Of a stretch of 42,350 nucleotides of DNA, positions 926 to 34,539 are shown piece after piece. The DNA is taken from IMG/VR virus record IMGVR_UViG_2636415673_000001, positions 1 to 42,350 of that record; one strand, written 5' to 3'. Position numbers and translations under genes: made by a program. Positions within the stretch are counted from its first letter, which is position 1. Each line of letters starts with the position of its first letter. A model generated the notes under the pieces. The model was given only the letters and a program-made list of their open reading frames with translations. It searched no databases and was not told the DNA's origin. Origin of the DNA: a virus. Taxonomy: Duplodnaviria; Heunggongvirae; Uroviricota; Caudoviricetes.

Positions 926-1288
926 ATGTTAAATATATTTGCAAGGTACACCTCGATTGGTGTGCTGAACACACTTATACACTGGGTGGTTTTTGGTGTA
1001 TGTATCTATGCCGCGCATACCAATCAGGCTCTGGCAAACTTCGCAGGTTTCGTTGTGGCTGTGAGTTTTAGCTTCTTCGCGAATGCAAAATTCACATTCA
1101 AAGCATCAACTACAACGATGCGCTACATGTTATATGTCGGGTTCATGGGAACACTCAGTGCTACTGTTGGATGGGCTGCTGATAGATGCGCACTTCCCCC
1201 GATGATAACTCTTGTCACCTTCTCCGCCATCAGCCTGGTGTGCGGTTTCGTCTATTCAAAGTTCATTGTCTTTAGGGATGCGAAATGA
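926..1288 (+). CDS. gtrA: GtrA, bactoprenol-linked glucose translocase (flippase)
   Basis: 120-aa hydrophobic protein with GtrA-family N-terminus ([13 protein letters not shown]...); first gene of a three-gene operon overlapping gtrB by 4 nt. Confidence 0.85.
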
Positions 1289-2199
1289 AAATTTCTTTAG
1301 TCGTTCCGGTCTTTAACGAAGAGGCCACGATACCTATTTTTTATAAAACCGTGCGCGAATTTGAAGGGCTTCAGCAGCATGAAGTCGAGATAGTCTTCAT
1401 AAACGATGGCAGCAAAGACGCTACAGAATCAATTATCAACGAGCTTGCTGTTGCCGACCCGCTTGTGGTTTCGCTGTCGTTCACACGTAACTTCGGCAAA
1501 GAACCCGCCCTGTTCGCAGGTCTGGACCATGCTACCGGGGAGGCAATTATCCCGATTGACGTTGATCTGCAAGACCCTATCGAAGTTATTCCTTACTTGA
1601 TAGAGAAATGGCAGGCCGGTGCAGATATGGTTCTGGCTAAACGCTCTGACCGCTCCACTGACAGCAGGCTGAAGCGTAAATCTGCTGAGTGGTTCTATAA
1701 ACTTCATAACAAAATCAGCAACCCTAAGATAGAAGAAAATGTTGGCGACTTCCGGCTCATGTCTCGCGAAGTAGTAGAAAACATTAAGCTCATGCCAGAA
1801 CGAAACCTGTTTATGAAGGGTGTGCTGAGCTGGGTTGGTGGTCGAACCGATGTCGTAGAATATGCGCGAGCAGAACGCGTTGCAGGAAGCACAAAGTTCA
1901 ATGGATGGAAGCTCTGGAACTTAGCGCTGGAAGGGATCACTAGCTTTTCTACTTTCCCTTTGCGCATGTGGACTTATATAGGCCTGTTTGTGGCAACCTT
2001 ATCATTCCTTTATGGAGCATGGATGATTGCTGATAAATTGATGTTTGGAAATAGTGTTCCAGGTTACCCTTCTATCATTGTATCAATATTGTTTCTTGGT
2101 GGAGTTCAGTTAATAGGCATAGGAGTTCTTGGAGAGTATATAGGAAGAATTTATGTTGAAGTTAAGCAACGACCAAGATACATTCTAAAGGATAAGTAA
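1285..2199 (+). CDS. gtrB: GtrB, bactoprenol glucosyltransferase (GT2 family)
   Basis: 304 aa; N-terminal GT2 signature (VVPVFNEE...FINDGSKD), C-terminal TM helices; ATGA overlap with gtrA. Confidence 0.9.
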
Positions 2200-2200
2200 A

Positions 2201-3667
2201 ATGACTTTAAATATAAAAAAAACAGCCATATATATCATTGGATTTATATTCTTGACTTTCTTCTACGCCTCGATTTCAAAACAGATTTTGCCAAGTTCGG
2301 ATGCTGTTTCTGGACTTCTTGAGGGTAAGGACATTGCGGACGGAAATTGGACGCTTAGTGGATGGTATCTCTCTACAGTATCATTCTATTTTACAGACAT
2401 AATATGGTACGGGCTTGCTTCAAAGGTATTCTGGTACGGACAGTACCAAGCATACTGCATACCGGCAATTATGTATTCAATGGTTACATTGATGACATTT
2501 TATCTTTCAAAAGAAAGGCTTTCATCGTTATGGGCCATTTCATTTTGCGTTGCGCTGCCTTCTGGGTTTGCAGTATTAAACGTATTAATACCTGTGATAC
2601 ATGTCGGCACATATGTATCCATGTTGTTTTGCTTCATAATGTTAGACAATTTTTCCAAAACAAGATCGTTAATTTCTCTATCTCTTTATATTTTAGTGTT
2701 AGTTCTAGCTTGTTTCAGTGATGACATCATAAAGCTACTCATTATTGCACCAGTAGCAATATCATCAGTGGTTTTTATAGTAAAAACCAAAAGCCAAAAA
2801 AATCTGATCATACTAGTTGCAACTATATTTGCATATGTTGCATCAAAAATTATGACCATGTACGCAAGAGCTCATAACTGGTACATTTTGCCAGGCGTTC
2901 CAGATCCAACATTTGTTGCATTTGATGATATCCTGAATAATTTATACTTATTCGTAAAAGGATTCCTCCTATACAGTGGAGCTTTCTTCTTTGGCAAATC
3001 ACCTTCTGATATTACAGCGCTTATTTCTGTTTTTTGTTTTGTTGTAATGATTTTACTTCTTATATTAGTTGCAATGTCAGTAAAGGAAATATTCAAAACC
3101 TCCATGGTCAATATGGCTATATGTATAGCTTGTATTATAATGATACCAGCATACCTTGCAAGTAACCGTCCAATAGATGAATGGACTATAAGATATATCG
3201 TTCCATTTTTTATACTAGCACCTGTTGTTATTGGCAGATCTAACAACTCCAGAGGGTGGAAATTCATCGCATTAGGGGTTGTTACAACATTTATTCTCTT
3301 TTGTTCTATTTATATGCATGAAAAAAAAGACAATTCTAATGATATTATAAATCAGATAAAACACACTGTAAGGCAGAATAACCTCACAAACGGGTATGCA
3401 TCTTTCTGGTTTGCTTCATCAGCAAGTATAGATGGAGACATATCAATTGCTCCGATTGATGTAAACCGAGGTTTGAATATACTTGCATGCAATAAATGGT
3501 TGTCAAAAAACTATTGGTATGAGCGCGGAGGAAATTTCATAATTACAGATGATGAGGTTATGAGAAATATAACAATTAAAGAGATTGGTAATCCATCAAA
3601 GGTTATTGACGTCGGAGATAAGAAGATTTTTGTTTACGATAAAAACATTACATTCAACTGCAATTAA
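2201..3667 (+). CDS. GtrC-type serotype-specific O-antigen modifying glycosyltransferase (polytopic membrane protein)
   Basis: 488 aa, many TM segments, strongly AT-rich; third position of a gtrAB operon between attachment site and tailspike as in P22/Shigella serotype-converting phages. Confidence 0.7.
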   Translation: MTLNIKKTAIYIIGFIFLTFFYASISKQILPSSDAVSGLLEGKDIADGNWTLSGWYLSTVSFYFTDIIWYGLASKVFWYGQYQAYCIPAIMYSMVTLMTFYLSKERLSSLWAISFCVALPSGFAVLNVLIPVIHVGTYVSMLFCFIMLDNFSKTRSLISLSLYILVLVLACFSDDIIKLLIIAPVAISSVVFIVKTKSQKNLIILVATIFAYVASKIMTMYARAHNWYILPGVPDPTFVAFDDILNNLYLFVKGFLLYSGAFFFGKSPSDITALISVFCFVVMILLLILVAMSVKEIFKTSMVNMAICIACIIMIPAYLASNRPIDEWTIRYIVPFFILAPVVIGRSNNSRGWKFIALGVVTTFILFCSIYMHEKKDNSNDIINQIKHTVRQNNLTNGYASFWFASSASIDGDISIAPIDVNRGLNILACNKWLSKNYWYERGGNFIITDDEVMRNITIKEIGNPSKVIDVGDKKIFVYDKNITFNCN

Positions 3668-22159: not shown

Positions 22160-22645
22160 TTATTTCAGTTCGTTACCAGGAATTTCTTTTAGCTCTTTCA
22201 AATGACAACGATTGAGGCTAAACCACTCCCCGTGCGACCTATAGTTGTAATATTTTTGGTGCAATTTGGTTTCAAGCTCTCTATCGGCCGGAATCTTTGC
22301 AATTAGATTTAGCTTCCCACCACTCATGCGAGATATCTCTGAAATTCGTTTATTAACCCTGCGACTAAACCCTATTTTTGTTAGCCCACTATCTTCAGCA
22401 TGCAGAACGTACACATATGATTTTTGCGAAGCACTGGGTGCGACTTTGTTGTAATTAATCATGTCAAACATGAAGCCTTGCTTTAGCAAAGTTTCAAAAA
22501 AGATAGAATTAACACACCCATTCCTTCTCAGCTCTGCACTTAGCTTGTCAATTTCCTCTATGATGTCGCCAGACCCCTTTCCACTTATAAGAAAATCTTG
22601 GTACATGCGACCAATTCTTGAGGTAATTTCAACAAAGTTATTCAT
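22160..22645 (-). CDS. T5orf172 / GIY-YIG-like domain protein (putative nuclease), AT-rich moron
   Basis: 161 aa; motif YVYVLHAEDSGLTKIGFSRRVNKRISEI...GEWF typical of T5orf172-type GIY-YIG domains; AAGGT RBS. Confidence 0.6.
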   Translation of the reverse strand: MNNFVEITSRIGRMYQDFLISGKGSGDIIEEIDKLSAELRRNGCVNSIFFETLLKQGFMFDMINYNKVAPSASQKSYVYVLHAEDSGLTKIGFSRRVNKRISEISRMSGGKLNLIAKIPADRELETKLHQKYYNYRSHGEWFSLNRCHLKELKEIPGNELK

Positions 22646-24479: not shown

Positions 24480-24555
24480 TGGTGCTGGTTAACGGACTTG
24501 AACCGCTACCCATTCGCTTACAAGGCGACTGCTCTACCATTGGAGCTAAACCAGC
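24480..24555 (-). tRNA. tRNA-Thr (anticodon UGU), phage-borne
   Basis: 76 nt folding by hand into a cloverleaf: 7-bp acceptor GCTGGTT/AACCAGC, D-stem GCTC/GAGC, anticodon loop CTTGTAA, T-loop TTCAAGT, encoded CCA; one G-A mismatch at top of anticodon stem. Confidence 0.65.
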
Positions 24556-24560
24556 ATATT

Positions 24561-24635
24561 TGGCGGGACAGCGTGGACTCGAACCACGATAAGAAGGTTA
24601 ACAGCCTTCCGTAATGACCTTTATACGACTGACCC
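24561..24635 (-). tRNA. tRNA-like gene, anticodon GUU (Asn); possibly degenerate
   Basis: 75 nt; anticodon arm GAAGG-CTGTTAA-CCTTC and T-arm CGTGG-TTCGAGT-CCACG perfect, encoded CCA, discriminator G; U-U mismatches in acceptor and D stems. Confidence 0.5.
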
Positions 24636-32058: not shown

Positions 32059-32718
32059 ATGAAAATGAAATGGTATGAACTGGCTAGATCCAGAATGAAA
32101 GAACTCGGCATAACTCAAGAGAAGTTAGCTGAAGAGCTTGGTATGACGCAGGGTGGAATTGGTCACTGGTTGCGCGGATCTCGTCATCCATCTCTTGACG
32201 AGATTGGTGTGGTGTTTAAATACCTTGGTATTGATAACGTCTCATTCAACCACGACGGTACATTTTCACCTGTTGGCGAATACTCATCTGCCCCCGTTAA
32301 AAAACAATATGAGTACCCTGTTTTTTCTCATGTTCAGGCCGGGATGTTCTCGCCTGAGCTTAGAACCTTTACCAAAGGTGATGCGGAGAGATGGGTCAGC
32401 ACAACCAAAAAAGCCAGTGATTGTGCGTTCTGGCTTGAAGTTGAAGGTAATTCCATGACCGCGCCAACAGGATCCAAGCCAAGCTTTCCTGACGGGATGT
32501 TAATTCTCGTTGACCCTGAGCAGGCTGTTGAGCCAGGTGATTTCTGCATAGCCAGACTTGGTGGTGACGAGTTTACCTTCAAGAAACTGATCAGGGATAG
32601 CGGTCAGGTGTTCCTACAGCCACTAAACCCGCAATATCCAATGATTCCATGCAATGATAGCTGTTCCGTAGTAGGGAAAGTTATCGCCAGCCAGTGGCCT
32701 GAAGAGACATTTAGTTAA
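32059..32718 (+). CDS. cI: CI repressor: non-lambda N-terminal HTH domain fused to lambda-type S24 autoprotease C-terminal domain
   Basis: C-terminal ~130 aa match lambda cI ([20 protein letters not shown]...), N-terminal ~90 aa do not; start 32059 or 32065. Confidence 0.9.
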
Positions 32719-32749
32719 CAGCCTCACAACTCTAAAACACACAACAATA

Positions 32750-32778
32750 ACCCGACCTTAGCGTCGGGTTTTCTTTTT
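32750..32778 (+). terminator. Intrinsic terminator after cI
   Basis: acccgac-ctta gc-gtcgggt hairpin followed by TTTTCTTTTT. Confidence 0.75.
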
Positions 32779-32819
32779 CCAAAATATAAACCCATTAAAT
32801 ACAAAGCGTTATAAAAAAC

Positions 32820-32890
32820 TAATTATATTTAGAACATTTTGTATTGACTCGATAAAGTACAAATCGTACTATTTAGCCATCAGCAGGACG
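32820..32890 (+). promoter_or_regulatory. pL promoter with oL operators
   Basis: ttgact at 32844..32849, -10-like gtactat ~32867..32873; downstream sequence matches the lambda pL leader into nutL. Confidence 0.65.
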
Positions 32891-32911
32891 TACTAACCAC
32901 CATGAAGGTGA

Positions 32912-32942
32912 CGCTCTTAAAAATTAAGCCCTGAAGAAGGGC
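32912..32942 (+). promoter_or_regulatory. nutL: nutL (boxA + boxB)
   Basis: boxA cgctctta 32912..32919; boxB gccctgaagaagggc 32928..32942, as in lambda nutL. Confidence 0.9.
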
Positions 32943-33052
32943 AGCATTCAAAGCAGAAGGCTTTGAGTAGCGCGAAATGCAGCTGCAAGACAGCAACCGT
33001 GGAGATAAGCATCACGGCGCGTTACTCAAAGCTAACTGACAGGAGAATCCAG

Positions 33053-33379
33053 ATGGATGCACAAACACGCCGCCGCGAACGTCGCGCAGAGAAACAGGCT
33101 CAATGGAAAGCAGCAAATCCCCTGTTGGTTGGGGTAAGCGCAAAACCAGTTAACCGCCCTATTCTCTCGCTGAATCGAAAACCGAAATCACGAGTAGAAA
33201 GCGCACTGAATCCGATAGACCTTACGGTGCTGGCTGAATACCACGAACAGATTGAAAGCAACCTGCAGCGTATTGAGCGCAAAAATCAGCGCACATGGTA
33301 CAGCAAGCCACGCAGTGAAATAGGTGTGACTTGTGTTGGTCGCCAGAAAATGAAATTAGGCAGCAAACCACTTATTTGA
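33053..33379 (+). CDS. N: Antiterminator N
   Basis: 108 aa matching lambda N (MDAQTRRRERRAEKQAQWKAANPLLVGVSAKPVNRP...); AGGAG RBS. Confidence 0.95.
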   Translation: MDAQTRRRERRAEKQAQWKAANPLLVGVSAKPVNRPILSLNRKPKSRVESALNPIDLTVLAEYHEQIESNLQRIERKNQRTWYSKPRSEIGVTCVGRQKMKLGSKPLI

Positions 33380-33387
33380 GGTGAGAT

Positions 33388-33858
33388 ATGACAAAATCAT
33401 GGAGCGTACCTTTTCCTGAATCAGAAACTGAACATGATGGAATGCCTGTTTTCTGGAGATTCCAGGCGACAGTTGAAGAAGATGGGATAAAAATATTCGC
33501 ACTTCAATATATAGCTTTTCATCAGACAGAGCATTATGCATGGTTGGTTCCTGCGCATTGGATTGTTAATTTTAAACCAGCACCAAATCAGTGGTTACAG
33601 GAATGGAAACAAAGGAGAAATAGATATGCAATTAAGAAAGTAGCAAAAAATGCAGAAAGATCTTTTGCATTCCCAACGAAGAAACTTGCCATTGAGAGTT
33701 TATTGCGCCGGAAGAAATACCATTTAATGAGAATCAAACAAGATTTGGCTGTTGTATCAACTCTTGTTGATGGGATGAAGAATATTGATACATCAACACC
33801 AGATATTGAATATAACTTTGGGCACAACCAAGAAACAGAAAATTGGGTATTTTATTAG
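33388..33858 (+). CDS. AT-rich hypothetical protein (moron) immediately downstream of N
   Basis: 156 aa; GAGG RBS; visibly AT-rich codon usage; followed by stem-loop and terminator; no family recognised. Confidence 0.6.
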   Translation: MTKSWSVPFPESETEHDGMPVFWRFQATVEEDGIKIFALQYIAFHQTEHYAWLVPAHWIVNFKPAPNQWLQEWKQRRNRYAIKKVAKNAERSFAFPTKKLAIESLLRRKKYHLMRIKQDLAVVSTLVDGMKNIDTSTPDIEYNFGHNQETENWVFY

Positions 33859-33872
33859 TACGAGTAAGCACT

Positions 33873-33900
33873 GTGTATTCATTCCAACGAGTGAATACAC
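33873..33900 (+). other. Stable stem-loop without U-tract
   Basis: 9-bp stem gtgtattca/tgaatacac with 9-10-nt loop, 15 nt after the moron stop. Confidence 0.4.
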
Positions 33901-33962
33901 GGAGCAATGTCGCTCGTAACTAAACAGGAGCCGACTTGTTCTGATTATTGGAAATCTTCTTT

Positions 33963-33987
33963 GCCCTCCAATGTGAGGGCCTTTTTA
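33963..33987 (+). terminator. Intrinsic terminator (tL1-like)
   Basis: gccctc-caatgt-gagggc hairpin followed by CTTTTTAT. Confidence 0.7.
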
Positions 33988-34052
33988 TATGCATACCAAT
34001 AACGCTTCACTCGAGGCGTTTTCGTTATGCAATCAAACAGAAGGAGCATCCT

Positions 34053-34223
34053 ATGCAACAGTTCGCTATTGCAGGGGCGGCATCGGTTCGCCCTTTCAAC
34101 CCGATTTTATCGGTGCAGCATTCACGAAAAAATATTTTAACCGGAGCAGACTTTAAACAACCTCGCGTTAAGAGCTTGCTGGATCGTCTTGTTGAGTTTC
34201 TGAATCAAAAGGTACAGCCATGA
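34053..34223 (+). CDS. CIII-like small protein (putative FtsH inhibitor)
   Basis: 56 aa; AAGGAG RBS; loose resemblance to lambda CIII (MQ.FAIAG...L.D.L..LNQ); assignment tentative. Confidence 0.4.
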   Translation: MQQFAIAGAASVRPFNPILSVQHSRKNILTGADFKQPRVKSLLDRLVEFLNQKVQP

Positions 34224-34384
34224 AAAAACCAACTTACGAGGAACGGGAAGAAGCCCTGAAAGAGCTTAGAAGAATGGCTTTCGCCAGACGCACTAACTCT
34301 CACAACTGCGGCCCATTTCAGTACTCTGATTTATGCGAGGACATCATTGAGGTAACTCAACTGATTAAGGTCGTTAAGCAATGA
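34220..34384 (+). CDS. Small hypothetical early protein
   Basis: 54 aa; ATGA-coupled to upstream ORF. Confidence 0.4.
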   Translation: MKKPTYEEREEALKELRRMAFARRTNSHNCGPFQYSDLCEDIIEVTQLIKVVKQ

Positions 34385-34539
34385 GCATTGCGGATACATG
34401 GTCAGACGAAGAATTCATTCGTCAGATGAAAGATTTAATCGGTAACGAAGGAGATATTCATGTCACTTGCAACCACAGTGAAGGAGAGCAAGTTACAGAG
34501 ACGCATGTACACACAGAAAGCTCTCTGGTATCGCCATAA
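34381..34539 (+). CDS. Small hypothetical early protein
   Basis: 52 aa; ATGA-coupled. Confidence 0.35.
   Translation: MSIADTWSDEEFIRQMKDLIGNEGDIHVTCNHSEGEQVTETHVHTESSLVSP

Follow-up and report, generated by a model that had tools for sequence, protein, structure and literature searches.

A single-gene cassette behind the antiterminator gene N of a P22-like lambdoid prophage: an already catalogued gene with a possible role early in phage growth

What does a foreign-looking gene placed directly behind the antiterminator gene N contribute to a lambdoid phage, and when would it be expressed? The question is raised by an open reading frame (ORF) of 156 codons in the stretch of DNA analysed here (42 350 nt, referred to below as the window), which corresponds to an entire P22-like lambdoid prophage whose insertion site lies between ybhB and ybhC. 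The order of elements on the plus strand is cI, a pL-like promoter, nutL, a lambda-type N and then the ORF (Table 1). The region flanking the promoter (32874–32964) shares 96.7% identity with the pL/nutL region of lambda, and the hairpin GCCCTGAAGAAGGGC within it is presumably boxB. Positions 33026–33308 share 97.9% nucleotide identity with lambda N.

Table 1. Coordinates of the features around the ORF, given as positions in the window
Feature	Position	Strand	Remarks
pL-like sigma-70 promoter, TTGACT-17-TACTAT	32844–32872	+	
nutL hairpin GCCCTGAAGAAGGGC, taken to be boxB	32928–32942	+	Within segment matching lambda region annotated Nutl
Lambda-type antiterminator gene N	33053–33379	+	3' end divergent
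Left linker of the cassette, 61 nt	33327–33387	+	Includes RBS GAGGTGAG; identical in HK97 and 933W
ORF, 156 aa	33388–33858	+	ATG at 33388; stop TAG at 33856–33858
14-bp hairpin	33871–33902	+	Part of conserved lambdoid backbone, not gene-specific
Intrinsic terminator (33963–33980) with T-run	33963–33990	+	Homologous to lambda terminator 33952–33931
Second intrinsic-terminator-like site (34001–34020)	34001–34030	+	Homologous to lambda 33512–33493

N ends with a TGA codon at 33377–33379 and is separated from the ATG of the ORF by a spacer of 8 nt (GGTGAGAT, 33380–33387). A Shine-Dalgarno-like sequence, GAGGTGAG, resembling a GAGG-type ribosome-binding site (RBS), was found at 33378–33385, overlapping the N stop codon. 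These positions agree with the first-pass annotation of this DNA, which had described the ORF as starting 8 nt past the N stop with its own RBS. Given the short gap and the overlap of the RBS with the N stop, the gene belongs to the same transcript as N, and its translation would probably be coupled to that of N. The description of the ORF as AT-rich was likewise borne out, with a GC content of 36.3% compared with 47.2% for the window, among the lowest 3.3% of all windows of 471 nt, and a GC content at third codon positions of 28.7% compared with 60.2% in N. Most of the other 471-nt windows that are as AT-rich are supplied by a cluster at the prophage end, beside the tailspike gene (926–3667), which comprises a low-GC gtrA/gtrB-like pair (yfdG, yfdH) and a hypothetical gene encoding 488 amino acids and has the look of a lysogenic conversion cluster for O-antigen modification.

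Purifying selection on the ORF shows that it is a real gene. Comparison with an 85%-identical homologue gave a dN/dS of 0.16; in more distant pairs of homologues, in which synonymous sites are saturated, pN was 0.17–0.27. Homologues with 55–85% identity were found in Pectobacterium, Brenneria, Cronobacter, Rosenbergiella and one Salmonella phage, and conservation among 20 of these spans the full length of the protein. An overlapping minus-strand ORF of 79 amino acids (33588–33827, TTG start) was set aside because the pattern of conservation tracks the plus-strand frame, and no sign of it being a gene was seen.

Judged by sequence identity, this gene is already catalogued, as HK97 gp45, 933W L0079, phrog_1636 and WP_000167595.1. 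At the nucleotide level it is 99.4–100% identical to HK97 gene 45, L0079 and the homologue in H-19B, and the encoded protein is 100% identical to the L0079 product. The match to the phrog_1636 profile (E = 2.7e-112) extends over residues 1–156 of the 156-position profile, for which the PHROG annotation reads 'unknown function'. In the matching prophage of Escherichia coli strain LSC52 the PGAP label is 'hypothetical protein' (WP_000167595.1), and all names in the 639-member cluster of the protein are either 'hypothetical' or 'prophage protein'. Copies of the gene were detected in 80 phage records, the majority of them from Stx1a and Stx2a phages, and in 561 of 5426 complete E. coli genomes (about 10%). 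It is carried by the textbook phages HK97, 933W and H-19B, by most Stx1a and by many Stx2a phages, and has stood without a function for 25 years. A literature search for L0079, gp45, the accession numbers and the phrog identifier brought up neither experimental data on the gene nor a paper that assigns it a function, and a sequence-string search of the supplements of two large accessory-gene screens did not recover the protein. The gene is a well-defined 'known unknown' and not a discovery.

The calculated mass of the protein is 18.6 kDa. The highest Kyte–Doolittle mean over 19 residues is only 0.56, indicating that it has no transmembrane segment. A basic central part (residues 61–130, pI 10.9, 17 K/R) lies between acidic flanks with a pI of 5.0 (residues 1–60) and 4.2 (residues 131–156), in keeping with the earlier picture of a protein of 156 amino acids with a basic centre and no transmembrane segment. 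When 1.84 billion representative proteins were searched with a profile, 87 relatives were retrieved, most of them 130–160 amino acids long and aligned over residues 19–140. All 73 relatives in the resulting alignment matched phrog_1636 and none matched Pfam; scans of the ORF protein and these relatives with Pfam, NCBIfam and PADLOC returned nothing above noise. Against the defence models of PADLOC-DB the best E-value of the query was 0.018, and no model was common to more than 3 of the 73 relatives. The statement in the first-pass annotation that the protein fits no nameable family thus stands, the PHROG entry of unknown function aside. No similarity in sequence or fold to known anti-defence or host shut-off proteins was found.

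Three specific relationships were considered and rejected. Alignment of the 73-sequence profile with lambda Ral by hhalign gave a probability of 0.1, and there was no match to Pfam families including PF14354. A strand–helix motif, 'RSFAFPTKKLA', suggested an AP2/integrase arm-type DNA-binding domain (a three-stranded sheet with a helix), which hhalign rejected. Kinship to the ORF that fills the same position in a P22-like Salmonella phage was also rejected by hhalign.

Structure prediction with AlphaFold from an alignment of 20 close homologues was poor (pLDDT 59.5). This model was replaced by one based on the 73-sequence alignment built from the profile search, which reached a pLDDT of 95.7 and a pTM of 0.82. 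The predicted structure consists of a long beta-hairpin with a third strand (residues 19–55), followed by two short helices, a short strand (83–86), a helix of 33 residues (98–130) and an ordered C-terminal tail. Modelling and fold comparison had been proposed at the outset; they yielded no similarity to any PDB chain, and matches only to uncharacterised viral proteins. These were 14 matches at E < 1e-3 in a library of predicted viral structures, from phages of Erwinia, Achromobacter, Delftia, Rhizobium, Sinorhizobium, Cellulophaga and Tenacibaculum, several of which belong to virulent groups (N4-like, Vi1-like). The model thus represents a confidently predicted fold without a solved relative. 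Conservation in the broad family falls on aromatic residues of the core, on glycines and on the basic residues K84, K87, R91 and R108/K109, with a family motif similar to K-x-x-K...S-R-F-A-F-x-T-K-x-x-A...R-K...H-L. No catalytic constellation of acidic or histidine residues was found among the conserved positions.

The ORF had been said to show 'typical moron architecture', with a stem-loop and an intrinsic terminator downstream of it. Both structures were found where they had been reported, in a segment (33850–34010) with a fold z-score of −4.4, but the moron assignment did not hold. The lambda homologue of the terminator is tL2a, and its counterpart is annotated as a putative terminator in the HK97 record; the lambda homologue of the second terminator-like site is tL2b. 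Positions 33867–33989 are 96.7% identical to lambda 33923–34045, the interval between ral and ea10, and a non-coding element of 131 nt that holds the hairpin and terminator (33862–33992) is at least 95% conserved in 325 phage records, lambda included, which is about four times the number of records with the ORF gene. Since lambda has these structures without the gene, and since they occur in 325 records compared with 80, the hairpin and terminators belong to the lambdoid backbone. On the upstream side, no promoter-like site was found on the plus strand between pL and the ORF, the pL-like promoter being the only such plus-strand site within 32600–34400. A moron can be tested on three counts here: a base composition unlike that of its neighbours was observed, a promoter of its own directly upstream was not, and the terminator is not part of the inserted unit, as it lies in the region shared at 96.7% identity with a phage that is without the gene. 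On this sequence evidence the gene is not a moron, as two of the three testable features are lacking.

The 131-nt element occurs in far more records than any single flanking gene and acts as a fixed slot boundary. An Rfam scan of 32700–34300 gave no match to an RNA family, so that the hairpin in this element is not a described sRNA; it may function as an RNA processing site, an sRNA or a recombination linker. A promoter-like site on the minus strand (TACACA-17-TAAAAT, 33849–33877) lies in the hairpin region and is aimed at the 3' end of the ORF. With a score of 9 of 12 it could be due to chance; HK97 has the same site, and at the homologous position in lambda it would face ral and sieB. The ea10/ssb gene, located between tL2a and tL2b in lambda, is missing here, and the tL2a-like and tL2b-like terminators are adjacent as a result. 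The next ORF after the terminators (34053–34223) begins with MQQFAIAG, as cIII does.

Alignment of the window with HK97 and 933W showed near-identity from 33327 to about 33981. This block begins with the 61-nt linker, which encodes the C-terminus of N in the window and is non-coding in HK97 and 933W, where it lies past the stop codon of an unrelated N. The use of the same 61 nt as coding sequence here and non-coding sequence there marks them as a recombination linker, and clearly so: it is the trace left when recombination transferred the cassette from one type of N to another. The ORF is carried as a single-gene cassette, with a 61-nt relic of the N 3' end as its left edge and the conserved hairpin/tL2a element as its right edge. 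The slot between N (or Nun) and the hairpin–terminator element is occupied by sieB, orf28 and ral in lambda, by sieB and another ORF in a P22-like Salmonella phage, by a minus-strand gene in HK446 and by IS903 in HK022. The cargo thus differs between phages, the slot itself is conserved, and the ORF gene is one of the alternatives that can be swapped into it; the N-proximal part of the pL operon is indeed a swap hotspot, in line with the first-pass annotation.

Outside the lambdoid slot, the family was found in a variety of contexts. A locus search with the alignment of the close family gave seven loci. One family member follows an unrelated N-like gene with a gap of 2 nt, as tight a junction as that seen here. 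Prophages of Pectobacterium and Brenneria have a family member as the last gene before xis-int. In Salmonella phage NX263, the whole record of which is without an annotated integrase or repressor, and in a related contig, the family member opens a small operon and is followed by a gene for a ParB-like DNA-binding protein. The early-left operons of five distinct distant prophages that include a family member encode C5 DNA methylases in four cases and a Lar restriction-alleviation gene in one, an association that is weak as such genes are common in these operons anyway. All-against-all BLAST of upstream and downstream neighbours (10 + 10 loci) identified no conserved partner gene, which indicates that the gene is a stand-alone unit. 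Since the family also occurs in apparently virulent phages, a function in lytic growth is favoured over one in lysogenic conversion.

The reading that we prefer, with a probability of about 0.4, is that the gene product is made early and acts by binding rather than as an enzyme, in the service of host takeover or counter-defence. When pL fires, on infection or induction, the ORF protein would be made together with N. As the gene lies upstream of the first intrinsic terminator, its expression would probably be independent of N antitermination; Rho-dependent termination may take place inside the gene. In the repressed prophage the gene would be silent. The model predicts a protein with an acidic N-terminal sheet built on the long beta-hairpin and an acidic, aromatic C-terminal tail, and between these acidic parts a very basic module made up of a strand and the 33-residue helix. 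With no catalytic motif, and with core aromatics and basic residues conserved, stoichiometric action is most likely. The binding partner of the protein would be either a polyanion, whether DNA or RNA, or a host protein of acidic character. Binding would most likely serve to take over the host or to counter its defences, for instance by disabling a host barrier directed against DNA, which would make the protein a functional stand-in in the slot of Ral. It would be dispensable cargo that improves lytic growth in some hosts. The points in favour of takeover or counter-defence are circumstantial, namely the ral slot, the probable immediate-early timing, the patchy, cassette-like distribution and the company of methylase and Lar genes elsewhere. 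A role in defence, which had been offered alongside anti-defence as a hypothesis, is disfavoured by the location in a repressed pL operon and by relatives in phages without an annotated integrase or repressor.

A bolder version of this reading is that the ORF protein is the founding member of a new family of single-protein counter-defence (or host shut-off) factors whose fold has not been seen before. It would be produced along with N from the first pL transcript, and the family would be widespread in Shiga-toxin phages and in prophages of the HK97-like and P22-like kinds, with more distant members in virulent phages that infect many groups of bacteria; we regard this as rather unlikely. Should the protein turn out to serve counter-defence or host takeover and to be produced with N at the very start of induction, phages would be credited with a new family of such proteins, and there could be consequences for the way in which Shiga-toxin phages achieve productive infection of hosts new to them.

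A basic protein that resembles a nucleic-acid binder would fit a phage-intrinsic regulatory or DNA-metabolism role equally well, and such a role is almost as plausible as the takeover or counter-defence reading. The protein would then be a nucleic-acid-binding factor without any anti-defence role that tunes the early programme through transcription or antitermination, recombination, the start of replication or the choice between lysis and lysogeny. This would be consistent with the conserved K/R residues in the basic strand–helix module, with the invariable location of the gene within early operons (beside N, recombination genes or xis-int) and with the ParB-like protein encoded next to it in NX263 and the related contig. 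However, the position of the gene is variable, with neither a conserved partner nor a conserved neighbouring site, and the protein has no match to known DNA-binding folds. Moreover, only a minority of similar lambdoid phages carry the gene, judging from the excess of backbone records, which points to dispensable cargo and not to a core regulator.

Less probable still is a Kil-like factor that kills the host or arrests its growth through an early shutdown of division, replication or transcription, to the benefit of the phage. The expected early expression, the lack of an enzyme motif and a basic patch that could block a host machine are all compatible with such an activity, and the gene shares its operon with kil and cIII-type genes; yet the protein has no similarity to known host shut-off proteins, and the gene is stably carried in about a tenth of complete E. 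coli genomes, though repressed there. A moron-type role in lysogenic conversion or superinfection exclusion, in which the prophage would express the gene to shield the lysogen from other phages, might be suggested by the AT-rich, foreign-looking composition of the gene, the terminator downstream and the presence of sieB in this slot in lambda and P22-like phages. Such a role is very improbable, because there is no promoter-like site from pL to the ORF, the gene lies on the N strand 8 nt behind N in a repressed operon (sieB, by contrast, is on the opposite strand) and homologues occur in phages without an annotated integrase or repressor, while the terminator is backbone and no PADLOC models match.

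Two further loci in the window were recorded. Genes for tRNA-Thr(UGU) and tRNA-Asn(GUU) are located on the minus strand between a Q-like antiterminator gene and the lysis genes (24480–24635). Phage tRNA-Thr(UGU) genes are reported to counter the tRNA-cleaving OLD defence protein (2026 preprint, 10.64898/2026.07.10.737580), and in light of that work this tRNA pair could be a counter-defence element. A gene of the GIY-YIG nuclease family, inserted on the minus strand (22160–22645) with the lysis cassette on one side and the gene for the small terminase subunit on the other, may encode a homing endonuclease or an accessory nuclease.

Compared with known systems, the early binding protein that we favour for host takeover or counter-defence shares features with several phage genes. 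With classical morons such as HK97 gene 15 it has in common an atypically low GC content, a single gene and a downstream terminator; it differs in lacking a promoter of its own, in an RBS that lies over the N stop and in a terminator that is shared backbone. The likeness to T7 Ocr (gene 0.3) is that the ORF protein would be among the first made from an early promoter and is small and non-enzymatic. Ocr is an acidic, all-helical DNA mimic, whereas the core of the ORF protein is basic, and its model matched none of the solved structures, that of Ocr included. The N-proximal slot also carries sieB in lambda and P22-like phages, where SieB is produced in the lysogen from a promoter of its own. The sieB gene is on the opposite strand, whereas the ORF is promoterless, lies on the N strand and not antisense to pL, and encodes a soluble product with none of the membrane-spanning segments of a SieB-type protein. 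Lambda Ral is also a small accessory early protein encoded in the pL operon, on the same strand and in the same slot between N and the hairpin/tL2a element, but it has 66 amino acids compared with 156 and its sequence is unrelated. In one distant prophage a family member lies two genes downstream of a Lar-family gene, which indicates that the two are not simple alternatives. The closest counterparts are HK97 gp45, 933W L0079 and the H-19B homologue, which are the same gene in the same place after N with the same hairpin and terminator next to it; in HK97 and 933W an unrelated N ends 58 nt upstream of the gene, whereas here a lambda-type N reads through the 61-nt linker and the gap is 8 nt.
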